Origin: an uncultured Isosphaeraceae bacterium
GTDB taxonomy: Bacteria; Planctomycetota; Planctomycetia; Isosphaerales; Isosphaeraceae
NCBI GenBank assembly: GCA_964624465.1
Contig: CAZUZD010000181.1
Span: 1 to 12,342 of the forward strand
Length of the DNA stretch: 12,342 nt
Reading direction: 5' to 3'
Shown here: piece after piece, positions 1-12,342 of the stretch
How the letters are laid out: every line of letters begins with the position of its first letter
Position numbering within the stretch: position 1 is the stretch's first letter
Made by a program: the position numbers and the translations under genes
The notes under the pieces: generated by a model
Databases searched by the model: none
What the model saw: only the letters and a program-made list of their open reading frames with translations
What the model was told of the DNA's origin: nothing

Positions 1-393
1 CCAGTTCAGGGCGTTGCCGGCACGCATGCCGGTCGCGGTGCCAACCACATCGTCAGCACTACCGGTGTAGCGGGTATCGCTTTCCTTCTTCATCCGCCAT
101 AGGCGCAGCGACTCCTCGCCATCGTCATAGCGGAAGGTCTCGTGCAGCGTGCCGGTATTGCCGTCCCACGCACCGACCATGTCGACCTCGAAGCGGCGCA
201 GCACCCGGCCCTTGCGGTCCTGGACGATGCCCCAGGCGGTGACCTTGCCGTCGAAATATTCCTCCATACGCAGTTCCGGCTTGGCGCCCGCGTAGATGTT
301 CGGTTCGATGCTCATGCAGCCTCCCAGGGCGAACAGCGTAAACAGCAGTGCCGAGACTTGCCCGCTACGGGCTAGAACGAAAACACGGGACAT
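1..393 (-). CDS. Partial DUF3833-like lipoprotein. The first 131 codons are present; the 3' end lies beyond the window start.
   Basis: Reverse-strand translation from the ATG (revcomp of 391-393) gives MSRVFVLARSGQVSALLFTLFALGGCMSIEPNIYAGAKPELRMEEYFDGKVTAWGIVQDRKGRVLRRFEVDMVGAWDGNTGTLHETFRYDDGEESLRLWRMKKESDTRYTGSADDVVGTATGMRAGNALNW. This has a signal peptide with an LGGC lipobox. The EEYFDGK..AWG.VQDR.G.V.RRF.VD..G.W.G..G.L.E.F.YDDGE pattern is as I recall it for the DUF3833 family. A perfect GGAGG (plus strand cctcc, 400-404) sits 6 nt upstream of the ATG. There is no in-frame stop before the window edge. GC and codon usage (cgt, gaa, tat, cta) differ from the rest of the window. Confidence 0.55.
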   Translation of the reverse strand, partial: MSRVFVLARSGQVSALLFTLFALGGCMSIEPNIYAGAKPELRMEEYFDGKVTAWGIVQDRKGRVLRRFEVDMVGAWDGNTGTLHETFRYDDGEESLRLWRMKKESDTRYTGSADDVVGTATGMRAGNALNW

Positions 394-576
394 GACGAGC
401 CTCCTGCAAGGAGCTGTTCCCTCCGCGTTGGCTCGGTGGTGTCGGGGCTCAGCCAGATGGCGATGAACGCGTTACCGAAGGCGGGGTCCGGGATGGTGCC
501 CAGGTAGCCCTCGGTGCCAAAAAAGTGGGAGACGCCGTCTTGATCGACTTGCAGCAGCAGAACATCCCCCGGCTCG

Positions 577-1131
577 ATGTCGGGCCAGATCGCACGGATC
601 TGGCGGAGCCAGCCGGTCTTCCAGCGCCGGAAGTTCTTCAAGGGCCGGCCGATCCGGGGCGCCGACATCAAGGACCTCTCCTGGCTCGACCCCACCGGCG
701 GCGAGATGACCGACGAGGCCTGGAACGCCGGCTACGTGAAGTGCCTGGGGATGCAGCTCGCCGGCGACCTGATCGGCGACGTCGACGAGCGTGGGCAGCC
801 GATCGTGGGCGAGACGGTGCTCATCCTCATGAACGCCCACTGGGAGCCGCTGCCCTTCGCCCTGCCAGCCCCCGCCGCCGGCCACCACTGGGAGCATCTG
901 GTCGACACCTCCGACCCGACCGCCACGGCCACCTTCCTGGGCGAGTCGGCCAGCTACCCGCTCAAGGACCGCAGCGTGGTCGTGCTCCGCCAGCGCCGGA
1001 AGGACGAGCCGGCCGGCCTGGTGCTCTCGGGCCAGCAGACCGAGCAGATCCTCGAAGGCCGGCTCCAGCCCGCCGGCCCCAGCGGCGGCGTGCCGGCCAC
1101 CTCCACCCTGGCCAACACCCGCGGCACCTGA
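577..1131 (+). pseudogene. glgX: 5'-truncated glycogen debranching enzyme (GlgX/TreX-type) remnant: C-terminal ~185 codons only
   Basis: Translation IARIWRSQPVFQRRKFFKGRPIRGADIKDLSWLDPTGGEMTDEAWNAGYVKCLGMQLAGD..GQPIVGETVLILMNAHWEPLPFALPA..WEHLVDTSDP matches the conserved GlgX C-terminal region (HPVFRRRRFF-GRPI-G...W..P.G.EMT.EDW...F..L....DD.F.L.FNAH.E...F.LP). The frame is closed by a TGA at 541-543. None of the three upstream plus frames contains GlgX-like sequence. A full GlgX is ~700 aa, so the N-terminal catalytic domains are absent. Confidence 0.55.
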
Positions 1132-1292
1132 GCCCGGCCCCCGATCCGGCCGCGTCCCGACCCCCCGGTTCCCCCCCACCATCGCCCTCGCCCGCGCCGC
1201 TCCACACCGGCCGGGCGGGGGCGATTGCGTGTCCGGGTCCGGTTCCGGCGGCACGAACCCGCCGGTCGGCCGGGCGGGGCGTCCCGAGACGC

Positions 1293-1301
1293 TGTTTCCC
1301 G
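1293..1301 (+). promoter_or_regulatory. Copy 1 of shared upstream motif TGTTTCCCG, 117 nt upstream of the QueC-like operon start
   Basis: The exact octamer GTTTCCCG occurs only 3 times on the plus strand of the window (here, 8725-8732 and 9611-9618), all in upstream intergenic regions of plus-strand genes. Given the base composition, fewer than 0.1 occurrences are expected by chance. Confidence 0.3.
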
Positions 1302-1312
1302 ATCGACAGCCG

Positions 1313-1342
1313 TTGGGTATCGTGGTCCCTGAATGTTATGGT
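1313..1342 (+). promoter_or_regulatory. Possible sigma70-like promoter (TTGGGT, 18 nt spacer, TATGGT) in a locally AT-richer stretch
   Basis: TTGGGT at 1313-1318 and TATGGT at 1337-1342, with the ATG at 1419 (~70 nt leader). The match to consensus is weak; Planctomycete promoters are poorly defined. Confidence 0.15.
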
Positions 1343-1347
1343 GTGCT

Positions 1348-1361
1348 CGATCGATCGATCG
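1348..1361. promoter_or_regulatory. Perfect 14-nt palindrome CGATCGATCGATCG, i.e. (GATC)3, just downstream of the putative -10: candidate operator
   Basis: The sequence is self-complementary as read. It lies in the leader of the QueC-like operon, 47 nt downstream of the TGTTTCCCG motif. Confidence 0.25.
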
Positions 1362-1418
1362 GGTGCGGTCCCGACCCGCCGGTCGGGCCGCTCCCCGGAC
1401 CGGCTCGCGTGATCCGCG

Positions 1419-2708
1419 ATGCAGATTCACCCCCCCGAATTCACCGTCGCCAACGACCGCTGGACCGCGTCGGCCGTGATCGAGAGCGCCTCGGGCCAGC
1501 GCCAGACGCTCTGGTATCGCGGGGCCTGCTCGGCGGCGGTGGCCGTCAGCCGGCAGTCGGACCCGTTCGTCGTCGCCTCGGTGTTCCTGGCGATGCGCCG
1601 TGGGGAACCGCTCCGGATCGCCGGGCCGGTGTCCCCCTCGCTGCTGGGGAACCTGGAGGAGTTCATCGCCGCCTGGTCGATGCTCAAACCCGCGTCGTAC
1701 CGGCGGATCGCGATCGAGGCGGACACGCTCCGGGAACCGCCGGCGGCTCGCACCGGCAGCGCCGTGATGGGGTTCTCGGCGGGGGTTGACGCCTGCTTCA
1801 CCGCCTGGCGGCACACCCAGGACCGCGCCGGCTTCCAGCGGCTCCCCCTGGCGGCCGGGGTGCTGGTCCACGGCTTCGACATTCCGCTGGATCAGCCCGA
1901 CATGTTCCAGGGGGCCGCCGCGCGGGCCCGGGCGCTGCTGGAGAGCGTGGGCCTGGAGTGCCTCACGGTCGCGACGAACCTGCGACAGTTCACCGGCGAG
2001 TGGTCCGACACGCATGCCGCCGCGCTGGCCTCGTGCCTGCACCTGCTCCAGCCCGGGTTCGCCACCGGGGTCATCAGCGGCTCGTACCCGTACGAGGATC
2101 GGGTGTTCGTGCATGGCTCGTGCCCGCTGACCGACCGGCTGCTGGGCAGTCGCCGGTTCCCGATCGTGCACGACGCCGCCCAGGCCGGCCGGCAGGCGAA
2201 GATCCGGGACCTGGGGCACTGGCCCGAGGTCCGGCAGCACCTGCGCGTCTGCTGGCAAGGCGCGCAGAAGGATCGCAACTGCGGCCGCTGTCACAAGTGC
2301 GTCAACGCCATCCTCAACTTCCGGATCGCCGGCCATGGCGCCCTGCCGGCGTTCCAGCCCGAGGCCACTCCCGCCCAGATCGCCCGCGTGCCGCACCATA
2401 CCGACACCGTGATCGGGATCTCGCGGCGGACGCTCGCCGACGCCCGCCGTGCCGGCTACCACGACCCCGGCCTCGCGGCCCTGCGACGCGCCGTCAGGCG
2501 AAGGTGGCTCCAGCCCGCCTGGTGGCGGTACCGGCTCGGCGGCTGGCGCGATCGGCTGCGCGGTCGCCTGGTTCCGGCCCTGAAGCGGCACTGGCGGCGC
2601 ACCAGCTTGCCCCTGCCACCGGCTCGCATTTTGCCGCTGACAGTCGACAATGGAGGCCCCGATCCCGGTGCTCGTCATGGGAGGGGCGAGCCCGGTTCGC
2701 GACGATGA
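1419..2708 (+). CDS. QueC-like PP-loop ATPase/amidoligase paralogue A (429 aa) with an ~115-aa N-terminal extension and a basic Trp/Arg-rich C-terminal tail
   Basis: GC3 is above 90% and amino-acid composition is normal. The PP-loop-like segment VMGFSAGVDACFTAW resembles QueC VVFSGGQDSTTCL. The C-terminal zinc motif VCWQGAQKDRNCGRCHKCVNAIL (C-x9-C-x2-C-x2-C) is nearly the same as the QueC motif CYNG...GCGHCAACNLR (C-x8-C-x2-C-x2-C). The protein is ~68% identical to the CDS at 3772..4962, and its N-terminus aligns with that paralogue from Met1. There is no obvious SD. Confidence 0.8.
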   Translation: MQIHPPEFTVANDRWTASAVIESASGQRQTLWYRGACSAAVAVSRQSDPFVVASVFLAMRRGEPLRIAGPVSPSLLGNLEEFIAAWSMLKPASYRRIAIEADTLREPPAARTGSAVMGFSAGVDACFTAWRHTQDRAGFQRLPLAAGVLVHGFDIPLDQPDMFQGAAARARALLESVGLECLTVATNLRQFTGEWSDTHAAALASCLHLLQPGFATGVISGSYPYEDRVFVHGSCPLTDRLLGSRRFPIVHDAAQAGRQAKIRDLGHWPEVRQHLRVCWQGAQKDRNCGRCHKCVNAILNFRIAGHGALPAFQPEATPAQIARVPHHTDTVIGISRRTLADARRAGYHDPGLAALRRAVRRRWLQPAWWRYRLGGWRDRLRGRLVPALKRHWRRTSLPLPPARILPLTVDNGGPDPGARHGRGEPGSRR

Positions 2709-2744
2709 TCCCGCGGCATCCAGGAACTTCAGGCCGGAGCCGGC

Positions 2745-3746
2745 ATGCGGAATCCGTATCTGCTCTTCCTGGGTGACGCCCGGGACGCGCTGGCCGCCAA
2801 GACGGCGCAAGGGCTGGCCGACTGGCGACCCGGGTGGTGCGTGGGCCAGCTCCGGCTGCCGGGCTGCCAGGCGGACGTGGGCCTCCCGGACCTGACGATC
2901 GCGGCGGCGGCCGCGGCCGGGGCCCGGACCCTGGTGATCGGCCTGGCCAGCTCGGGCGGGGCGCTGCTGCCCCACTGGGTGCCCACCTTGCTCCGGGCGC
3001 TCGACGCGGGGCTGGACCTCGCCAACGGCCTGCACGATCGGCTGAGCGACCATCCCGAGATCGCCGCCGCGGCCGGGCGGCTGGGGCGGACGCTCCACGA
3101 CGTGCGCCACTGCGGCCAGACCTTCGCCACCGGCACGGGCCGGAGGCGATCCGGGCGCCGGGTGCTGACGGTGGGGACCGATTGCTCGGTCGGCAAGATG
3201 TACACCGCCCTGGCGATCGAGCGGGAGCTGCGGCGCCTGGGTCGCAGCGCCGACTTCCGCGCCACCGGTCAGACGGGCATCCTGATCGCCGGCCAGGGCA
3301 TCGCCATCGACGCCGTGGTGGCCGACTTCATCGCCGGGGCCGCCGAGGCGCTCGCGCCCGATCACGAGCCGGAACACTGGGACGTGATCGAGGGCCAGGG
3401 CTCGCTGTTCCACCCCGCGTTCGCGGGCGTCACGCTCGGCCTGCTCCACGGCTCGCAGCCCGACGCCCTCGTGCTCTGCCACGAGCCGACCCGTCAACAC
3501 CTGCGGGGCCTGCCCCAGGCGCCGGTGCCCGACCTGGAGGCGTGCGTCGAGCCCTACCTGCAAGCCGCCCGGCTCACCAGCCCCGCGTGCCGGCTGGCCG
3601 GCGTGAGCCTGAACACCCGAGGGCTCGACCCCGAGGCCGCCCGTCGACTGATCGCCGAGGTCGAGGACCGGCTGTCCGTGGTCGGTACCGACCCGCTGCG
3701 GTTCGGCGTGAGTCGGCTCGTCGAGCGACTCCTCGGCGATCGGTGA
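2745..3746 (+). CDS. DUF1611-like two-domain protein (Rossmann-like N-domain plus a BioD/CobQ-like P-loop C-domain with GTDCSVGKM); DgcN-like
   Basis: The ORF is 333 aa with GGAG 5 nt upstream of the ATG and a 36-nt gap after the upstream gene. The motifs LFLGDARDALAAKTAQGLADWRP, VGTDCSVGKMYTAL, ATGQTGIL.AGQGIAIDAVVADF and EGQGSLFHPAFAGVTLGLLHGSQPDALVLCHEP match my memory of DUF1611 (PF07755/PF17396). The family assignment is from memory, not from a search. Confidence 0.6.
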   Translation: MRNPYLLFLGDARDALAAKTAQGLADWRPGWCVGQLRLPGCQADVGLPDLTIAAAAAAGARTLVIGLASSGGALLPHWVPTLLRALDAGLDLANGLHDRLSDHPEIAAAAGRLGRTLHDVRHCGQTFATGTGRRRSGRRVLTVGTDCSVGKMYTALAIERELRRLGRSADFRATGQTGILIAGQGIAIDAVVADFIAGAAEALAPDHEPEHWDVIEGQGSLFHPAFAGVTLGLLHGSQPDALVLCHEPTRQHLRGLPQAPVPDLEACVEPYLQAARLTSPACRLAGVSLNTRGLDPEAARRLIAEVEDRLSVVGTDPLRFGVSRLVERLLGDR

Positions 3747-3771
3747 CCCGCCCCCGCGCGCAGGATGATCC

Positions 3772-4962
3772 ATGAAGGTTCACGCTCCCGAGTTCACCGT
3801 CTCCGAAGGCCACGGGGTCGCGTCCGCCGTCCTCGAGACGGACGATGGCCGCCGCCGGTCGCTCTGGTACCGGGTGCCCGAGTCGGCGGCCGGGTCCGTG
3901 AGCCGACAGGCCGATCCGTTCGCCATCGGCGCGGTGTTCCTGGCCATGATTCGCGGCGAGCGGCTGCGGATCGCCGGCCCGGTCTCTCCCTCGCTGCTGG
4001 GGAACCTGGAGGAGTTCATCGCCGCCTGGTCGATGCTCCGGCCGGCCGACTACCGTCGCATCGCCATCGAGGCGGACACCCTCCAGGAGCCGCCGGCGTC
4101 CCGGAAGGCCGGCGCCGTGCTCAGCTTCTCGAGCGGCGTGGATGCCTGCCTCTCGGCCTGGCGGCACACCCAGGACCTGGCCGGCTACCAGCGCCTGCCG
4201 CTGGCCGCCGGCGTGCTGATCCATGGCTTCGACATCCCGCTCGATCAGCCCGCGACCTTCGGGCGGGCGGCCGTGGGCGCGCGGGCCCTGCTGGCGAGCG
4301 TCGGCCTGGAGTACCGGACGATCGCCACCAACTTCCGCGACCTGCCCGGCGAATGGTCCGACACCCATGGCGCCGGGCTGGCCTCGTGCCTGCACCTGCT
4401 GCAGCCGGAGTTCGCCCTCGGGGTGATCGGCAGCAGCTACACCTACGCCGAGGGCGTGGTCCTGTACGGCTCGTGCCCGCTGACCGATCCGCTGCTGGGC
4501 AGCCGCGGGTTCCCGATCGTGCACGACGCCACCCCGATGAGCCGGCAGGAGAAGATCCAGGCGCTGGGGGCCTGGCCCGAGGCGCGCCAGCACCTGCGCG
4601 TCTGCTGGCAGGGGCCGCACCTGGACCGCAACTGCGGCCGCTGCTTCAAGTGCCTGAACGTGATCCTCAAGGCCCGGGTCGCCGGCCTGGGCCGGCTGGC
4701 GGCGTTCCCGGTCGAGGCGACGCCCGCGCGGATCGCCACGATCCAGCTCCGCGCCGACCTGACCCTCGCCAGCGCCGGCCGCACCCTGGCCGACGCCCGC
4801 CGGGCCGGCTACCACGACGCCGGGATCGCCGCCCTGCGGTTCAACGTCTGGACCACCCGCCTCCGCCCCTTCTGGTGGCGGTCGCGCCTGCGCACCTGGC
4901 GCGAGCGCCGGCGCGACCGGCAGGCCCGGGCTGCCGGCCACCCGGCCGGATCCGCCGACTGA
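3772..4962 (+). CDS. QueC-like PP-loop ATPase/amidoligase paralogue B (396 aa)
   Basis: GGA SD 6 nt upstream, with a 25-nt gap after the DUF1611-like gene. The PP-loop-like segment is VLSFSSGVDACLSAW and the zinc motif is VCWQGPHLDRNCGRCFKCLNVIL. The conserved tail is RRAGYHDAGIAALR...RLRPFWWRSRLRTWRERRRDR. Architecture and ~68% identity match 1419..2708. Confidence 0.8.
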   Translation: MKVHAPEFTVSEGHGVASAVLETDDGRRRSLWYRVPESAAGSVSRQADPFAIGAVFLAMIRGERLRIAGPVSPSLLGNLEEFIAAWSMLRPADYRRIAIEADTLQEPPASRKAGAVLSFSSGVDACLSAWRHTQDLAGYQRLPLAAGVLIHGFDIPLDQPATFGRAAVGARALLASVGLEYRTIATNFRDLPGEWSDTHGAGLASCLHLLQPEFALGVIGSSYTYAEGVVLYGSCPLTDPLLGSRGFPIVHDATPMSRQEKIQALGAWPEARQHLRVCWQGPHLDRNCGRCFKCLNVILKARVAGLGRLAAFPVEATPARIATIQLRADLTLASAGRTLADARRAGYHDAGIAALRFNVWTTRLRPFWWRSRLRTWRERRRDRQARAAGHPAGSAD

Positions 4963-5029
4963 CACGGCGTCGGGTCGGCGCGCCGGGCCCACGCTCGTCG
5001 TCCGGGCCGCGTTGCCCGGATTCTCGGAC

Positions 5030-5064
5030 GGCCGACCGCCGCCGGGTGCTGGCGGTGGTCGGCC
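5030..5064. terminator. 14-bp GC-rich hairpin (one G-U pair, 7-nt loop) between convergent genes: candidate bidirectional terminator
   Basis: GGCCGACCGCCGCC (5030-5043) pairs with GGCGGTGGTCGGCC (5051-5064), leaving loop GGGTGCT. It lies 68 nt after the stop at 4962 and 42 nt from the GH2 stop at 5106-5108. A relatively U-containing tract (GTCTGGTGTGGTGG) follows on the plus strand. Confidence 0.35.
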
Positions 5065-5105
5065 GTCTGGTGTGGTGGCGAACCCTGCGGGGCGGACCGG
5101 GCGGG

Positions 5106-8100
5106 TCAGTCGCCCTTGAGCACGGTCAGGCCCAGGTCGATGCCCTGGCCGCCGCCGGTCTGGCGGCAGCGGACGGCGATCTGGTTCGGGCCCGGCTTGA
5201 AGGCGGCGCGGGCGCGGCCGTCGAGCACGACGTCCTCGTAGGCGGTGATGTAGCCGGGGCCGACGTACACCCGCTTGCCGTTGACGTAGAGGTCGACGTC
5301 CTCGTCGTGGAACAGCCGGAGCATCAGCAGGTCATTGTCGCCCAGCTCGGGCACGTCGATGGTCGTGCGGAGCCAGATCGTCGGCGTGTTCCAGGGGGTG
5401 TGCACGGCCACGGCGGGCGTGCCCTCGGTGCCGAAGCCGGCCGGGCCGCGCTTCCAGGCGGAGTCGTCGAAGCCAGGCTCGATCCAGGCGCCGACCTCGG
5501 GCTCGTCGGTGGTGTAGGCCCAGGTCGTCGCCTGGTCGCGGCCGGCCTCGCCGGAGGGGAGCACGCCCACGCGCCGCGAGGCCATCGTCTCGACGGCCGG
5601 GCTGAGGCCGGCGTCGACGCCCAGGTCGGCGGGCAGGTCGGCCTCGGTCTCCAGGAACAGGGTCGGTTCGATCGGGTAGGCCCCGGTCTCGGCGCCATAG
5701 ACCGCCAGGCCGCCGTGCGGGCCGCTGTCGTCGCTGGTGCCCAGGCGGAGGATCAGGGGGCTGCCGGCGGCCAGGTCGGCGATCGCGGTGTCGGGCAGGG
5801 GGTGGGCGGCGTCGATCAGGTAGCCGAAGCTGCCGTGCTCCTGGCCCTTCAGGTGCGAGAGCACGCCGCGGGCGTCGGCCGGGTCATCGGCCAGGGCCAC
5901 GCCGGCGACCCGACGGCCGTTGAGGGTGATCAGCACGCCCGAGGGGTGCTTGCGGACGTCCGTTTGAGGGTAGTCCTGCGCGTTGCGCCGCAGGGCCCAG
6001 TCCACCTTCTCGCGGCCCGCCTTGGCGGCCAGCTCGGCGCGGATCCGGAACGCCTTCGGCTTCGCCTTCACCACCGCCTCGGGCACCTTGAGCTTGTAGA
6101 CGAACGAGCCGTTGCCGCGGCCGTGCGCCTTGCCGTCGGGGAGGCTGAAGCCGTCCGACCAGCGGGCGCTCGAGAACTCGCCGGGGGCGAATCGCAGGGC
6201 GACCGTGTGGTCGTCGATCCGCTCGATCCTGGGCGCCGGCGCCTCGGGCCGCACCACGACGTTGACGAAGTTCGCCGCCAGCCGCTTGCCGGTCCTGTCC
6301 TCCAGCACCAGGGCGACGGCGCCGACGAACGGCTCGCCCAGCTTGAAGGCGACCCGCTTCTGCGGCGTGACGCTGTAGGGGGCCCACTGCACCTCCCGGG
6401 TGCGCGGCTCGATGCCGATCTTCTCGCCCTCGCCGTTGACGCCCGTGACCCACCACTTCAGCACCGGGGCCTCGGTCAGGGTCGAGTAGTGGCTCACGAA
6501 CAGTTCCACGGGGATCAGCTCGCCGACCTTGGCCTCGATCGCCGGCGGGCCGTCGTAGCCGATGAAGTCGGCCCCTTGCAGGTCGGCCGGGGTCATGCCG
6601 GGGACGAAAGCGTCGTAGCCGAAGGTCTTGGGCGTGCGGTCGTAGTTGGCGAAGCCATTGTGTTCCCACTCGATGTCGGTCAGCTCGGTGTAGATGTAGC
6701 CCTGGATCTTGGGCTGCTTGCGGAGCAGGGTGGTCAGGTCGCGGAAGCCCCACGAGATGTCGCGGTCGCCGCTACCGGCCGAGACCGAGCCGTACTCGCT
6801 GTTGATCAAGGGGGCCGAGTTCATCGTCTCGCCCGGGCAGTAGTTGAACGCGCTGCCGGGGGTGCTGCCGGCGACGACGCCGTCGATGTGCCGCTTCGCC
6901 TCGTCGTGGTTGTCGATGTAGAAGTGCCACGAGTTCAGGTCGGTGCCCGCGACGTGGTCGTAGTTGCAGGGGCTGTTGTCCTCGATCAGCCGGGTCGGGT
7001 CGATCTGCCGCATCAGGGCGACCATGTCCTTGACCCACTGCTGCGTGCCCTTGTTCGCCTTGTACTCCTCGGGCGTGCCCAGGCCCCAGGTCTCGTTGAA
7101 GGCGACCCACGAGAAGATCGACGGGTGGTTGCGGTCGCGCGGCAGGATCTCGCGCATGGTCGCTTCCCAGGCCGCCCGGGCTCGCTCGTTCTGGCGCCAG
7201 GTGTTGGGCATGTCCTCCATGATCAGCATGCCGAGCTTGTCGGCCCAGTAGAGCCGGCGGGGCTCCTCGGGCTTGATGTGGATCCGCAGGAAGTTCGTGC
7301 CCATCGTGCGGGCCAGCTCGATGTCCTGCTTGAGGAACTCGTCGCTGGGCGCGGTGTACAGGCCCTCGGGGTTGAACGACTGGTCCAGGGCCCCGCGCAG
7401 GTAGATCGGCTTGCCGTTGAGCAGGACCCGCTCGAACGGCTCGTCGCCGACCTTGCCGCGGGCGATCGTGCGGAGGCCGAGGTAGGTCCGGATCGAGTCG
7501 ACGGCGCCCGAGGGGCTCTTGAGCTCCAGGGTCACGTCGTAGAGGTGCGGCGACTCGGGCGACCAGAGCTTCGCGTTCTGGACCGGGAACATGAAGGTGT
7601 GCACGGTCGGCGCGGCGTTGTCCTCGCCGGTGGCGAACGTGGCCGAGCGGGCGCCGATCTCGGGGGCCTCGCCGGTCAGGCTCACGGTGTACTCCCCCTT
7701 CTCGGCGGGGCGCACCAGCAGGTTCACCTTCACGACGGCCGGTTCGAGCGACAGCGTCGCGGAGCCGAACGCCTCGATGCGCGCCTTCGGGCGTGATTCG
7801 AGCCAGACCGTCTGCCAGATGCCCGAGCTGGGCGTGTACCAGCCCACCTGCTTGCCCGTCGGCAGGCTGGGGTCGGTCGGGTCGAAGGCGCGGACGACGA
7901 CCGTGTTGTCTTCCCCGCGCTTGAGGGCGTCGGTGGCGTCGACCTCGAACGGGCTGTACCCCCCCTCGTGCTCGGCGACCTTGGTGCCGTTGATCCAGAC
8001 ATCGGCCCGCCAGTCGACGGCGCCGAAGCGGAGCCAGACGCGGTCGTCGGCCGGGAACGCGTCGGGCACGCGGACCGTGCGGCGGTACCAGCCGATCTGG

Positions 8101-8447
8101 GGCGTGACGCCCTTGGCCGCGTCGGCCGGGGTCCTGAGCCCGGCCAGGGCGCTCTCCCAGGGGAACGGCACGGCGATCGTCTGGTCGAAGCCGGCGGCGT
8201 CGGGGGCGAACCACTCGGCCTTGAGGCCCTCGTCGCCGGCGTCGAACCGGAACTGCCAGGGGCCGTTGAGGTTCGCCCAGTGCGGCCGCACGGCCGTCGG
8301 GTCGGGATGCTCGGGCCGGGGGATCGCCGCGGCCGGGGCTGTCGCCTGCGCCCCGGACGCCGGGGGCGCCCACGGGCTCAGGATCGCCAGGGCCAGGGCC
8401 AGGGCCAGCACCGGCCGGCTGGCGGCGCGGGGGAGGCGGGGAATCAT
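5106..8447 (-). CDS. Secreted glycoside hydrolase family 2 enzyme (beta-glucuronidase/beta-galactosidase/beta-mannosidase-like), 1113 aa with extra C-terminal beta-sandwich domains
   Basis: The GH2 hallmarks are present: VWINGTKVAEHEGGYSPFEVD (compare GUS HQGGYTPFEAD), the acid/base motif SWVAFNE (compare WSIANEP) and the nucleophile motif INSEYG (compare IITEYG). The likely true start is the ATG at 8447-8445, giving MIPRLPRAASRPVLALALALAILSPWAPPASGAQA, a signal peptide with an A-x-A cleavage site. A GGAG lies 8 nt upstream. The track's upstream extension to 8663 is R/P/G-rich and would bury the signal peptide. Confidence 0.85.
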   Translation of the reverse strand: MIPRLPRAASRPVLALALALAILSPWAPPASGAQATAPAAAIPRPEHPDPTAVRPHWANLNGPWQFRFDAGDEGLKAEWFAPDAAGFDQTIAVPFPWESALAGLRTPADAAKGVTPQIGWYRRTVRVPDAFPADDRVWLRFGAVDWRADVWINGTKVAEHEGGYSPFEVDATDALKRGEDNTVVVRAFDPTDPSLPTGKQVGWYTPSSGIWQTVWLESRPKARIEAFGSATLSLEPAVVKVNLLVRPAEKGEYTVSLTGEAPEIGARSATFATGEDNAAPTVHTFMFPVQNAKLWSPESPHLYDVTLELKSPSGAVDSIRTYLGLRTIARGKVGDEPFERVLLNGKPIYLRGALDQSFNPEGLYTAPSDEFLKQDIELARTMGTNFLRIHIKPEEPRRLYWADKLGMLIMEDMPNTWRQNERARAAWEATMREILPRDRNHPSIFSWVAFNETWGLGTPEEYKANKGTQQWVKDMVALMRQIDPTRLIEDNSPCNYDHVAGTDLNSWHFYIDNHDEAKRHIDGVVAGSTPGSAFNYCPGETMNSAPLINSEYGSVSAGSGDRDISWGFRDLTTLLRKQPKIQGYIYTELTDIEWEHNGFANYDRTPKTFGYDAFVPGMTPADLQGADFIGYDGPPAIEAKVGELIPVELFVSHYSTLTEAPVLKWWVTGVNGEGEKIGIEPRTREVQWAPYSVTPQKRVAFKLGEPFVGAVALVLEDRTGKRLAANFVNVVVRPEAPAPRIERIDDHTVALRFAPGEFSSARWSDGFSLPDGKAHGRGNGSFVYKLKVPEAVVKAKPKAFRIRAELAAKAGREKVDWALRRNAQDYPQTDVRKHPSGVLITLNGRRVAGVALADDPADARGVLSHLKGQEHGSFGYLIDAAHPLPDTAIADLAAGSPLILRLGTSDDSGPHGGLAVYGAETGAYPIEPTLFLETEADLPADLGVDAGLSPAVETMASRRVGVLPSGEAGRDQATTWAYTTDEPEVGAWIEPGFDDSAWKRGPAGFGTEGTPAVAVHTPWNTPTIWLRTTIDVPELGDNDLLMLRLFHDEDVDLYVNGKRVYVGPGYITAYEDVVLDGRARAAFKPGPNQIAVRCRQTGGGQGIDLGLTVLKGD

Positions 8448-8717
8448 GACGGGCGCTCCGTGCTGGGGAGAGGGGAGTGCGCGGGCCGCGCGGGCCCGAC
8501 GGCCCATCCGGGCGGTCGCGCCGGGTGCCGACGGCCGCCGTGAGCCGGGCGCCCTCCGGTGGCGGGGACGCATCGCCCCGAGCCTATCAGACCCTCCCGG
8601 GGGCCGCGAGGGCCGGCCCGGGTGATGCCCGGCCGCCACGACCGGCCGGCGGTGGCACGCCATCTGCCGGCCAACCGCTCACACTCACGCCCCGGCGCGA
8701 GTCAAGCCTTTCGCAGT

Positions 8718-8732
8718 TTGCCCGGTTTCCCG
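8718..8732 (+). promoter_or_regulatory. Copy 2 of shared upstream motif (TTGCCCGGTTTCCCG), 67 nt upstream of the ATG at 8800
   Basis: It is 14/15 identical to 9604-9618 and contains the GTTTCCCG core. It lies in the 352-nt divergent intergenic region. Confidence 0.3.
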
Positions 8733-8799
8733 CGTCGACGCCCTCCCGGGCCGTTGCCGGGGTCCGGGCCCGTCGGAACCACCCAGGAGTCTGCCGCTG

Positions 8800-9495
8800 A
8801 TGAAGACCAGGATGCCCCGCCGCCCCCGTTCCCTGCAGCTCGAGACCCTCGAAGGCAAGGCGCTGCTCGCCGCGGCCGCCACCCGCCTGGTCCTGCCGCC
8901 GGCGCTGATCGGCCCGGTCCAGGTGCGGGCCGCCGTCGCCTCGACGCCGGCCCCGACCGCCGGCCGGGTCTCGGCCCAGCAGGTGGCTGACAACGGCACC
9001 ACCCAGATCACCCACGAGCGGTTCAAGGTGCGCGGCGGCCAGACCAGCTACGACCTGAACCTCAAGGAGGGCGGCTACAAGTTCGACCAGTCGTACGACC
9101 TGACCGTCCGCCGCGTCCGGGGCCAGGTCCAGACCGGGACCCTGACGGCCGCCGAAGCGGCCGGGCTGTTCTACGCGCGCTTCGACGAGCTGTCCACCAA
9201 CGCCATCGCCAACGGCGGCAACACCAACCACGGCGGCCTGACCGGCGGCGACTTCGAGGACATCGAGGTCCGCAAGCAGAACTACAGCATCCGCAACGGC
9301 AAGACGACCTACAACCTCACGTTCCGCTCCGGCGGCTACGAGTTCCAGCAGTCGTACACCCTGAAGGTCCGCCGCGACGGCAACTCGCCCATCACCGGCA
9401 CCCTCTCGGCCGCCGATGCCGTGGGCCTGTTCGTCCAGCGGTTCGACACGCTGGCCACCCAGTACGTCAGCACCCACGGCGCTGGCAACATCTGA
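8800..9495 (+). CDS. Small secreted protein (231 aa) with a Planctomycete-type N-terminus (RRPRSLQLETLEGKALLAAA) and two tandem ~87-aa domain repeats; function unknown
   Basis: AGGAG 10 nt upstream. The N-terminal R-rich segment followed by L.LE.LE...LL is the motif seen on many Planctomycete secreted proteins. Internal repeat 1: TSYDLNLKEGGYKFDQSYDLTVRRVRGQVQTGTLTAAEAAGLFYARFDELST. Internal repeat 2: TTYNLTFRSGGYEFQQSYTLKVRRDGNSPITGTLSAADAVGLFVQRFDTLAT. They are ~60% identical. Confidence 0.75.
   Translation: MKTRMPRRPRSLQLETLEGKALLAAAATRLVLPPALIGPVQVRAAVASTPAPTAGRVSAQQVADNGTTQITHERFKVRGGQTSYDLNLKEGGYKFDQSYDLTVRRVRGQVQTGTLTAAEAAGLFYARFDELSTNAIANGGNTNHGGLTGGDFEDIEVRKQNYSIRNGKTTYNLTFRSGGYEFQQSYTLKVRRDGNSPITGTLSAADAVGLFVQRFDTLATQYVSTHGAGNI
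9043..9459 (+). repeat. Intragenic tandem duplication: two ~156-nt repeat cores (9043-9198 and 9304-9459) with a period of 261 nt (87 codons)
   Basis: Protein-level alignment: T[ST]Y[DN]L..GGY[KE]F[DQ]QSY.L.VRR......TGTL[TS]AA[ED]A.GLF..RFD.L[SA]T. The nucleotide copies are also clearly similar. Confidence 0.6.
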
Positions 9496-9522
9496 TCGGA
9501 AACGGAGCGGCGCCCTTGGCCC

Positions 9523-9540
9523 CCGCCCGGCGGCGGGCGG
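9523..9540 (+). terminator. Short GC hairpin (7-bp stem CCGCCCG/CGGGCGG, 4-nt loop) 28 nt after the stop of 8800..9495; weak terminator candidate without a U-tract
   Basis: Pairing read directly from the sequence. There is no downstream T-run, and GC-rich hairpins are common by chance in this composition. Confidence 0.15.
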
Positions 9541-9603
9541 TGTCCCCACCCGGACCCCGCCCGCCGCTCCGGTGGCCGCGGCATGCTTTCCATGTTCCCC
9601 AGA

Positions 9604-9618
9604 TTGCCCTGTTTCCCG
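9604..9618 (+). promoter_or_regulatory. Copy 3 of shared upstream motif (TTGCCCTGTTTCCCG), 177 nt upstream of the flotillin start, in an AT-richer leader
   Basis: It is 14/15 identical to 8718-8732. The TGTTTCCCG core is also at 1293-1301. It is followed by TTGGAT and AAATAT-like elements. Confidence 0.3.
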
Positions 9619-9795
9619 GATTGGATTCTTCCAAATATCCTGAGATGGGAGTCGAATGGCTCTCGATGGTTGCCAGGCTGTCCCCTGTGCGGCCGGTGGG
9701 CCCGCTGGGTCCCGGCCGGGGAGAGCGATCGAGGGACCCGCCCCGTGCGCGGGTCCGGCACCATCGCAGGAGGCCCCCCAATCCGGGGTCAGAAC

Positions 9796-12096
9796 ATGGT
9801 GAGCTTGCTGGGGATCGGCCTGGGCACTGTCCTGCCGATCGCGGCGCTGTTCCCGGGCGACTGGGCCGTCTTCGGCCTGGCCGGGCTGGGGGTCGCCGCC
9901 GTGCTGGCGGTGGTCTTCAGTGGACTGCGTTACATCCCGAACAACCGGGTGGGCATCGTCGAGAAGCTCTGGTCGTCGAGCGGCTCGGTGCCCGAGGGGC
10001 AGATCATGGCGCTGGCGGGGGAGGCGGGCTTCCAGGCCGGCCTGCTCCGCGGCGGCATCCACTTCGGCCAGTGGCTCTGGCAGTACCGGATCCACAAGGT
10101 CAGCCTGGTCACCGTCTCGCAGGGGAAGATCGGCTACGTCTATGCCCGCGACGGCGTGCCCCTGGCGCCCAGCCAGACGCTGGGCCGGATCACCGAGTGC
10201 AAGAACTTCCAGGACGCCGCGGCCTTCCTGATGGGCCCGGCCGAGGATGAGACGGGCGTGATCCGCGGTCAGCGCGGCCGGCAGCGGGCCATCCTGCGCG
10301 AGGGCGTCTACGCCATCAACCTGGCGCTCTTCGTGGTCATCACCGAGCAGTCCGTCTACCGGCTCGAGAATCAGGGGCGCCGCGAGGTCGAGACCCTGCT
10401 CGGCTGGCAGAAGGAGCTGGCCGACCTGAACGCCTTCAACCCGGTCGTCGTGGGCGCCCCGATCGAGGCCCCCGACCCGCTGCGGCCCGGGCACCTGATG
10501 CACACCGACAGCATCGGCATCGTCACCGTGCACGACGGCCCCAGCCTCGGCCCCGGGCAGATCATCGCGCCCGAGGTCGGCACCGAGCGCAACGACAAGC
10601 ACTTCCACAACAACTTCCAGGACTCCGAGGCGTTCCTGGCCGGCGGCGGCCACCGCGGCCGGCAGTACGCGACCCTGACCGACGGCACCTACTTCATCAA
10701 CCGCTGGTTCGCCACGGTCGAGATGATCCCCAAGACCGTCGTTCCGATCGGCTACGTCGGCGTGGTGGTCAGCTACTACGGCCGCGCCGGCCTGGACGTC
10801 TCGGGTACCGGCTTCCGCCACGGCGAGCGGGTGCAGGACGGCGAGCGCGGCGTCTTGACCCGGCCGCTGGGACCCGGCAAGTACCCGTTCAACACGTATG
10901 CCGGCAACATCGTGCTCGTGCCCACGACCAACTTCGTGCTGCACTGGGTCACCGGCCGCTCCGAGAGCCACCGCTACGACGAGAGCCTGCGCTCCATCGA
11001 GATGGTGACCAAGGACGCCTACGAGCCGACCCTGCCGCTGTCCGTGGTCGTGCACATCGACTACGAGAAGGCGCCCAGCGTCATCCAGCGGTTCGGCGAC
11101 GTCTCCAAGCTGATCACCCAGACCCTGGACCCGATGCTCTCGGCCTACTTCCGCGACGTGGCCCACAAGCGGACGATGCTCGAGCTGCTGCACCAGCGCG
11201 ACGAGATCCAGGCCGAGTCGCGCGAGGCGCTGGCCCGGCGGTTCGGGCAGTTCGACATCGAGTGCGTCGACGTCCTGATCGGCAAGCCCGACACGGCCGA
11301 GGCCGGCGGCAAGATCGAGCTGCTGCTCGAACAGCTCCGGCAGCGGCAGTTCTCGGTCGAGCAGCTGGAGACCTACGAGCGCCAGCGCGCCTCGGCCGAG
11401 AAGCTCCAGGAGCTGAACGAGGCCCAGGCCCTGGCGACCATGCAGACGCAGCTGACCAACTCGCGGGTGCAGGTCAAGATCGTCGAGAACCAGGGCGAGG
11501 CCGACCTGGCCAAGGTGCAGAAGGCCGCCGAGGCCGACCTGGCGCGGGCCCGCAAGCAGGCCGAGCAGATGGTCGTCATGGCCGACGCCGAGCTGTCCCG
11601 CTCGCGCAAGGCCGCCGAGCAGACCCTCGTCACCGCCCAGGCCGAGGCCGAGCAGCGCCGGCTCGCCGGCAAGGGTGAGGCCGCCAAGCTCGCCCAGATC
11701 GGCCTGTCGGAGGCGTCGGTCCTGCTCCGCAAGATCCAGTCGTTCTCCGACCCGAGGCTCTACGCCCTCACGCAGGTCGCCGCCCAGCTCGCCCACAGCC
11801 AGCAGCCGCTGGTCCCCCAGCGCGTCTTCATGGCCGGTGGCTCGGCCGGCGGCGGCAACGGCGACGGCAAGTCTGGCGCGGGCGGGGTCGACGCCGCCGG
11901 CGGCCTGTTCGGTATGCTCCTGAGCCTGATGGTCGCTGAGAAGTCCGGCTTCAGCCCCGCCGAGGCCGACCCCGAGCTGACCCGCCTGGCCTCCTACGCT
12001 GACGAGCTGGCCCGCGACCAGCCGATCACCGAGCCGGCCCCGGTCCCGGCCGTGATCCCGACCCCCACCGTCGCGCCGGCCAGCAACGGCAAGTGA
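9796..12096 (+). CDS. Flotillin-like SPFH/band-7 membrane protein (766 aa): two N-terminal TM helices, an SPFH domain, a long Ala/Glu/Gln-rich coiled coil and a Gly-rich C-terminus (YqiK/FloT-type)
   Basis: Starting at ATG 9796 gives MVSLLGIGLGTVLPIAALFPGDWAVFGLAGLGVAAVLAVVFSGL (hydrophobic). This is followed by YIPNNRVGIVEK..., then the heptad-like segment AEADLARARKQAEQMVVMADAELSRSRKAAEQTLVTAQAEAEQRRLAGKGEAAKLAQ, then the tail GGSAGGGNGDGKSGAGGVDAAGGLFGMLLSL, which resembles the E. coli YqiK C-terminus. An AGGAGG lies 22 nt upstream. The track's earlier start at 9583 would add a Cys/Trp/Arg-rich non-membrane extension ahead of the TM helix and would cover the upstream motif. Confidence 0.8.
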   Translation: MVSLLGIGLGTVLPIAALFPGDWAVFGLAGLGVAAVLAVVFSGLRYIPNNRVGIVEKLWSSSGSVPEGQIMALAGEAGFQAGLLRGGIHFGQWLWQYRIHKVSLVTVSQGKIGYVYARDGVPLAPSQTLGRITECKNFQDAAAFLMGPAEDETGVIRGQRGRQRAILREGVYAINLALFVVITEQSVYRLENQGRREVETLLGWQKELADLNAFNPVVVGAPIEAPDPLRPGHLMHTDSIGIVTVHDGPSLGPGQIIAPEVGTERNDKHFHNNFQDSEAFLAGGGHRGRQYATLTDGTYFINRWFATVEMIPKTVVPIGYVGVVVSYYGRAGLDVSGTGFRHGERVQDGERGVLTRPLGPGKYPFNTYAGNIVLVPTTNFVLHWVTGRSESHRYDESLRSIEMVTKDAYEPTLPLSVVVHIDYEKAPSVIQRFGDVSKLITQTLDPMLSAYFRDVAHKRTMLELLHQRDEIQAESREALARRFGQFDIECVDVLIGKPDTAEAGGKIELLLEQLRQRQFSVEQLETYERQRASAEKLQELNEAQALATMQTQLTNSRVQVKIVENQGEADLAKVQKAAEADLARARKQAEQMVVMADAELSRSRKAAEQTLVTAQAEAEQRRLAGKGEAAKLAQIGLSEASVLLRKIQSFSDPRLYALTQVAAQLAHSQQPLVPQRVFMAGGSAGGGNGDGKSGAGGVDAAGGLFGMLLSLMVAEKSGFSPAEADPELTRLASYADELARDQPITEPAPVPAVIPTPTVAPASNGK

Positions 12097-12138
12097 CCAC
12101 TGCCAGCCCCTCGGGGCGGGATCCAAGTTCCACACAAC

Positions 12139-12171
12139 CGGCCCGTCGCGTCCCCCCGGCGCGACGGGCCG
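12139..12171 (+). terminator. 12-14 bp perfect GC hairpin followed by GUUGUUG, 43 nt after the flotillin stop: likely intrinsic terminator
   Basis: CGGCCCGTCGCG (12139-12150) pairs perfectly with CGCGACGGGCCG (12160-12171). The loop is TCCCCCCGG, followed by cggcgttgttgcc. Confidence 0.4.
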
Positions 12172-12342
12172 CGGCGTTGTTGCCGGTGAGCCCGATCTCC
12201 CGACTCCGGCCCACGGCAGCTCCGTCCGAGGCCGCTGGATCCGGGCTCCGCACACGGAACCCGGGCACCCGGGCGGTTCCCGTCCCGTAGGTCGGATGAG
12301 CGGAGCGAAAACCCCCGGGCGGGGGCCCGGGCCGGCTCGGGG

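Follow-up and report, generated by a model that had tools for sequence, protein, structure and literature searches.

Illegitimate recombination, whether facilitated by homology or mediated by microhomology, has been described in naturally transformable bacteria. Among widely used metagenome assemblers, the smallest k is about 21. Inter-species translocations are a MetaQUAST misassembly class targeted by metaMIC, DeepMAsED, and GUNC. In metagenome assemblies of the CAMI benchmark, they are reported to be the commonest type of misassembly (metaMIC preprint, doi 10.1101/2021.06.22.449514). The stretch of DNA analyzed here, referred to as the window, is a whole NCBI contig of 12,342 bp in which sequences from two phyla are joined 615 nt from the contig end. 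Comparison with other assemblies indicates that the contig is very probably an inter-species chimeric assembly join of two unrelated genomes at a short shared k-mer. The broader statement, which also takes in chimeric molecules formed before assembly, is safer still. An initial annotation had offered a chimeric join as the second of two readings, and this is the one we favor: the left part is near-identical to an intact gammaproteobacterial operon, the right part is planctomycete, and the switch between them falls inside a 21-mer that fits both.

The junction is genuine in the sequence, and DNA and protein comparisons from both sides placed it at 595 to 615. The initial annotation had put it at 544 to 580, but positions 544 to 594 still belong to the foreign segment. 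It had correctly recognized that the TGA at 541 to 543 opens the plus-strand frame that contains the GlgX C terminus; this TGA is itself inside the foreign segment. Both of the genes that meet at the breakpoint, Chalcone_3 and glgX, are without their 5' parts. The features are as follows.

1 to 615, no strand: foreign segment of gammaproteobacterial origin, GC 63.7%, extending to the left end of the contig
1 to 393, minus: first 131 of the 185 codons of a DUF3833 lipoprotein gene (PF12915), ATG at 393 to 391, running off the contig end
372 to 614, minus: C-terminal 80 codons and stop (TAG at 374 to 372) of a Chalcone_3 (chalcone isomerase-like) gene
372 to 695, minus: mechanical 107-aa ORF from the ORF list that crosses the breakpoint, with 27 codons antisense to glgX followed by the Chalcone_3 C terminus
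577 to 1131, plus: 184-aa ORF of the public record (P0001, NCBI), its first 7 codons (577 to 597) antisense to Chalcone_3
595 to 615, no strand: breakpoint 21-mer CGGATCTGGCGGAGCCAGCCG, fitting both parents by exact string and alignment
598 to 1131, plus: GlgX C-terminal fragment (PF21331, Isoamylase_C), residues 574 to 723 of a 723-aa GlgX, stop at 1129 to 1131
616 to 12342, no strand: planctomycete (Isosphaeraceae-like) part, assigned from glgX relatives, synteny, and Pfam/NCBIfam matches; it contains the glgX 3' end, two paralogous genes around dgcN, a GH2 glycosidase gene, and a gene for an SPFH protein
1419 to 2708 and 3772 to 4962, plus: paralogous genes of 429 and 396 aa flanking 2745 to 3746
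2745 to 3746, plus: dgcN, NCBIfam equivalog N-acetyltransferase DgcN, 516.7 bits against a cutoff of 480
5106 to 8663, minus: GH2 glycosidase gene, opposite a 1343-aa plus-strand ORF at 3765 to 7796
8587 to 12255, minus: 1222-aa ORF with GC1 of 0.93, GC3 of 0.69, and no Pfam hit
8800 to 9495 and 9583 to 12096, plus: ORFs opposite the 1222-aa ORF, the latter with an SPFH/Band_7 domain

The DUF3833 lipoprotein gene that had been reported to the left of the junction was recovered as described. Its product carries an LGGC lipobox in addition to a signal peptide and, cut as it is by the contig end, is an above-threshold member of PF12915 (144.1 bits against a Pfam gathering threshold of 25, with profile positions 2 to 112 of 163 matched). 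The DUF3833 search retrieved a 97%-identical cluster with contigs L002 to L006, one member of which, from a MAG, is named 'DUF3833 domain-containing protein [Gammaproteobacteria bacterium].' Two cluster members, P0117 and P0119, are fully identical to the 131 amino acids, and one of these two is encoded on L010. DUF3833 had been described as a mainly proteobacterial family. The named relatives agree with this in being mostly Gammaproteobacteria, together with one alphaproteobacterium (Inquilinus) and one Desulfofustis.

The second gene of the left flank, Chalcone_3, lacks residues 1 to 124 and keeps residues 125 to 204. Residues 125 to 204 of the 204-aa Chalcone_3 protein of contig L010 aligned to window positions 614 to 375 at 98.75% identity (tblastn). 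The match to PF16036 covered profile positions 97 to 164 of 165 and scored 24.1 bits, below the gathering threshold of 27, because just the C-terminal 80 residues are present. This minus-strand piece can be regarded as a fragment of a PF16036 member. The minus-strand ORF ending at 372 had been described as truncated, which is right in substance, and as having no start codon, which is not: the frame is open to 695 and contains an in-frame GTG (695) and ATG (668). Both of these codons are past the breakpoint and antisense to glgX.

Positions 1 to 615 matched seven independent metagenome contigs without gaps. DNA identity was 99.7% with L010 (2 mismatches, at 202 and 424), 98.4% with L002 to L006, and 97.4% with the JGI contig L013, which has an intact 204-aa Chalcone_3 gene. 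In all seven contigs the identity to the window ended sharply at 615 and the left flank continued into the remainder of Chalcone_3. For example, when L010 was kept in ungapped register with the window, there were 2 mismatches in 615 nt, and from 616 onward mismatches were near-random. The gene order in L002 to L006 is response regulator, HisKA, Chalcone_3 (204 aa), DUF3833 (185 aa), SDR, amine oxidase, DUF1365, CFA synthase, and DUF2878, an operon context that reads as proteobacterial.

In the donor population this cluster is conserved from the two-component system through Chalcone_3, DUF3833, SDR, amine oxidase, DUF1365, and cyclopropane-fatty-acid synthase to DUF2878, and eight or more assemblies made independently, in Logan, JGI, and ENA, contain it (L002 to L006, L010, L011, and L013). 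It occupies positions 821 to 8727 of L002. The Chalcone_3 gene has a 22-nt overlap with the DUF3833 gene. A co-occurring ENA contig that carries donor sequence has a MEGAHIT-style name (k141_).

The right flank has a different taxonomic origin, with Isosphaeraceae and Planctomycetales glgX genes opposed to the gammaproteobacterial DUF3833 cluster on the left. Residues 574 to 713 of the full-length, 723-aa GlgX of L008, an Isosphaeraceae MAG, aligned to window positions 598 to 1017 at 62% identity, and the identity of the fragment to Isosphaeraceae-type MAG GlgX proteins over these residues was 62 to 66%. The upstream continuation of the right-flank glgX was seen only in homologues (L007 to L009) that share this 62 to 66% amino acid identity. 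DNA similarity to three planctomycete glgX genes begins at 595 to 596, and protein homology begins at 598. The glgX relatives come from MAGs of Isosphaeraceae and Planctomycetales; two of them were found by scanning a genome collection with the degenerate motif pattern IWRSQPV[FL]QRRKFFKG. Farther downstream, window positions 5105 to 8337 are syntenic with the region downstream of glgX in L007.

The fragment, as the C-terminal part of a GlgX, scored 57 bits against the GlgX equivalog model TIGR02100 (positions 567 to 687 of 688), under the curated cutoff of 640.9. The initial annotation had described glgX as cut to its C-terminal third, but about one-fifth is kept, from residue 574 to the end. 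It had also stated that the N-terminal part is missing, and this was borne out: residues 1 to 573 of the full-length relative had no match elsewhere in the whole window (tblastn), although the loss comes to about 573 residues rather than about 500. The CBM48 and GH13 catalytic domains are absent across the whole contig. None of the collections searched yielded the native glgX of the planctomycete parent itself. When residues 1 to 602 of the L008 GlgX were used as the query, the best 120 of 8,000 hits, planctomycete homologues that include Tautonia and Isosphaeraceae, were all full length (708 to 756 aa). The public protein P0001, which is 100% identical to the window ORF, was recorded from NCBI only, with 12342 as its longest contig. 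It is the product of a chimeric ORF, since its start codon (ATG at 577) and six further codons come from the foreign DNA.

L001, a 1,486-bp Logan contig (SRR13608702) retrieved via the DgcN gene, was the sole other assembly with the right side; exact protein look-ups with the 184-aa, 429-aa, and 396-aa ORFs gave no further contig. It is 100% identical to window positions 2532 to 4017, and independent support for right-side continuity covers that interval only. The source run of L010 is SRR13608714. The close run numbers suggest one study, and both parents therefore probably co-occurred in the sampled material.

The remainder of the planctomycete part has several features of its own. The 429-aa and 396-aa paralogues on either side of dgcN share 68% identity over 370 aa and lie 2353 nt apart in register. 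Neither had a Pfam or NCBIfam family match, the searches giving only a weak DUF6395 hit (E = 0.008). Both contain FSxGVDAC and CGRCxKC motifs, which we take to resemble the PP-loop and zinc-binding motifs of QueC-like ATPases. The two paralogues form an uncharacterized family next to DgcN. Two long ORFs are probably shadow ORFs: the 1222-aa one on the minus strand and the 1343-aa one on the plus strand, which would shadow the GH2 gene. The intergenic region after glgX (1132 to 1418) is 75 to 79% GC, with a C-rich run at 1160 to 1180, and a palindromic tract, TCGATCGATCGATCG, is found at about 1347 to 1361, immediately 5' of the gene that starts at 1419.

The switch from one parent to the other takes place within an exact shared sequence of assembler k-mer length. 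The window tracks the gammaproteobacterial sequence to the end of the 21-mer at 595 to 615 and the glgX sequence from its start. The 21-mer was found exactly, on the antisense strand, inside the intact Chalcone_3 genes of L002 to L006, L010, and L013. On the planctomycete side it was found exactly inside the glgX of the Planctomycetales MAG L009 and, at 20 of 21 bases (a 20-mer), in the full-length glgX of L008, both of these being relatives and not the actual planctomycete parent. In L008 and L009 it is continuous with upstream glgX sequence; the L009 glgX locus is cut at residue 432, yet it is unbroken across the 21-mer. The glgX of L007 mismatches it at 3 of 21 positions. In glgX the 21-mer encodes the conserved RIWRSQP motif.

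An independent-base model with the GC contents seen here predicts that a 5-Mb genome and an 8-Mb genome share about 200 21-mers by chance, but about 0.0006 31-mers. Genomes of this kind therefore offer many opportunities for short-k links. A scan of JGI metagenome contigs for the 21-mer returned one intact donor contig, one chance match, and no junction. The chance match, at 284 to 304 of L012 (JGI Ga0247826_10214145, GC 67.6%), is exact, and this contig is otherwise dissimilar to both parents. The 21-mer thus turns up by chance in metagenomic DNA of high GC content.

Composition breaks at the same place. As the initial annotation had noted, there is a step to the left of the junction: GC is 63.7% in 1 to 615, compared with 72.3 ± 3.1% in 615-nt windows of the rest, and GC3 is 79% in the two left genes, compared with 90 to 97% in the right-side genes. 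GC alone was rejected as proof, the right side having 65 to 67% GC patches of its own, and a Markov model and DNA identity were used. A formal test found a difference. Third-order Markov log-likelihood ratios were computed with a host model built from the remainder of the window, the tested segment omitted, and a donor model built from L002 minus its homologous part. The value for 1 to 615 was -18.0, compared with 23.3 ± 10.5 for 223 right-side windows (z = -3.9), and was below the right-side minimum of -11.5.

A lower-GC patch (about 67%) at approximately 9066 to 10180, in the planctomycete part, gave the most donor-like of the right-side Markov scores, down to that minimum, and still scored above the left segment. 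No homology of this patch to the gammaproteobacterial contigs was seen.

An inter-species assembly join would account for these observations as follows. Positions 1 to 615 would be a piece of a gammaproteobacterial Chalcone_3-DUF3833 operon, and the sequence from 595 to the end would come from an Isosphaeraceae-like planctomycete, the two overlapping in a 21-mer (595 to 615) common to both by chance. An assembler working with a short k (about 21) might walk from the planctomycete glgX via the 21-mer into antisense Chalcone_3. Such a walk would be expected to leave two genes that diverge from one point without their 5' ends, to change the composition abruptly, and to finish the contig with a short piece of foreign DNA. 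The comparisons established where both flanks originate, where exactly the breakpoint lies, that undisrupted parental genes contain the shared 21-mer, and that both genes are intact elsewhere; we infer that the joining took place in silico rather than in a cell. The truncated glgX is almost certainly an artifact rather than biology.

The other reading in the initial annotation, that glgX was disrupted by horizontally acquired DNA whose edge is the junction, found no positive support. In its explicit form it would require that recombination at the 21-nt identity had very recently brought gammaproteobacterial DNA into the planctomycete chromosome, deleting or displacing the 5' four-fifths of glgX. 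If true, this would be a cross-phylum, microhomology-guided disruption of glgX in an Isosphaeraceae-like soil planctomycete, caught before compositional adaptation, but we consider it improbable. Recombination at a 21-nt identity would leave the identical sequence signature, and the junction does fall in a stretch common to both parents, as microhomology recombination would also yield. Donor-like DNA is present in a run numbered near the right-side run, and the contig stops before the other boundary, leaving room for a second crossover. However, the transfer would have crossed phyla so recently that the DNA is still 99.7% identical to that of a free-living population and its composition is unadapted. 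An identity of 21 nt is also at or under the commonly cited minimum for RecA-dependent exchange.

The surroundings of the junction also argue against integration. No integrase or other mobility gene, no tRNA, and no direct or inverted repeat pair flanking 595 to 615 was found in the window, nor was the missing 5' part of glgX; the genes in 1 to 615 are Chalcone_3 and DUF3833 only, and the far edge of the segment would be beyond the contig end. The junction was present in none of the independent contigs, compared with an intact donor arrangement in seven. In the protein database it was found only in P0001, which comes from this contig, and the 49-mer that extends rightward from the breakpoint (596 to 644) was absent from the JGI metagenome contigs. 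Furthermore, misjoins usually lie at contig ends, and that is where the 615-nt foreign tail is.

It is even less probable that the join predates assembly, either as a template-switched chimeric molecule or read from library amplification or as a chimeric long read, and was then assembled faithfully. Template switching, like a short-k assembly, favors short shared stretches, which counts in favor of this possibility. So does the nearby run SRR13608742, a long-read soil metagenome (PMC12574318) that, from the run numbers alone, would appear to belong to the same study as SRR13608702 and SRR13608714. However, a single chimeric molecule seldom sets the consensus of a contig, and an exact match of 20 to 21 nt better suits a minimal assembler k-mer.

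The idea that the 184-aa ORF is a genuine stand-alone gene for an isoamylase C-terminal domain, kept in the relatives P0002 to P0004, can be set aside: the three closest matches are indeed 204 to 233 aa, on long contigs, and have PF21331 only, but the start and first 7 codons of the window ORF are in the gammaproteobacterial segment and the homology starts mid-protein, at residue 574.

For P0002, L007 ruled out a conserved stand-alone Isoamylase_C gene, since two frameshifts there interrupt a full-length gene. Upstream of P0002, the L007 DNA encodes GlgX residues 1 to 113 and 97 to 504 in other frames, adjoining the short ORF, and P0002 is therefore a gene-calling fragment of a full-length gene. 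L007 (ENA contig_9758, 571 kb) is the closest relative; its glgX at 8468 to 10702 consists of three frame segments separated by the two frameshifts and has been called as separate CBM_48 and Isoamylase_C proteins plus a spurious 409-aa antisense ORF. The split in the L007 glgX reflects either indel errors of long-read assembly or a pseudogene.

The biological significance of the chimeric join is very small, and its practical value is in quality control. A public MAG contig bears a 615-nt foreign tail, which warrants a quality-control flag, and the 184-aa "protein" P0001 in public collections consists of antisense Chalcone_3 codons fused to a GlgX C terminus. Conclusions drawn from this contig that glgX has been lost, or that DUF3833 or Chalcone_3 is present in Planctomycetota, would be wrong. 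As this case also shows, read data are not indispensable for diagnosing a chimeric join when the intact parental arrangements are available elsewhere and the switch falls inside a shared k-mer.

Relative to known systems, the right-flank fragment resembles the GlgX debranching enzyme (TIGR02100; GH13 with an N-terminal CBM48) in that residues 574 to 713 align at 62 to 66% to Isosphaeraceae-type MAG GlgX and the downstream GH2 gene is syntenic with that of a relative. It differs in that the window holds the C-terminal fifth only, without the CBM48 and catalytic domains. With homology-facilitated or microhomology-mediated illegitimate recombination, the locus shares a junction in a short donor-recipient identity and genes truncated on both sides. 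Unlike in such events, neither a second junction nor a longer stretch of anchoring homology was seen here, no independent sample contains the junction, and the donor DNA is undiverged from a co-occurring free-living population. The closest likeness is to inter-species translocation misassembly. Such misassemblies are usually demonstrated by coverage, read breakpoints, and mate pairs, whereas here the diagnosis comes from sequence comparison. In other respects the locus corresponds to this class: its flanks come from different phyla and continue natively in other assemblies, the right flank in homologues only, and its breakpoint is in a short exact shared k-mer, at a step in composition, near the end of the contig.
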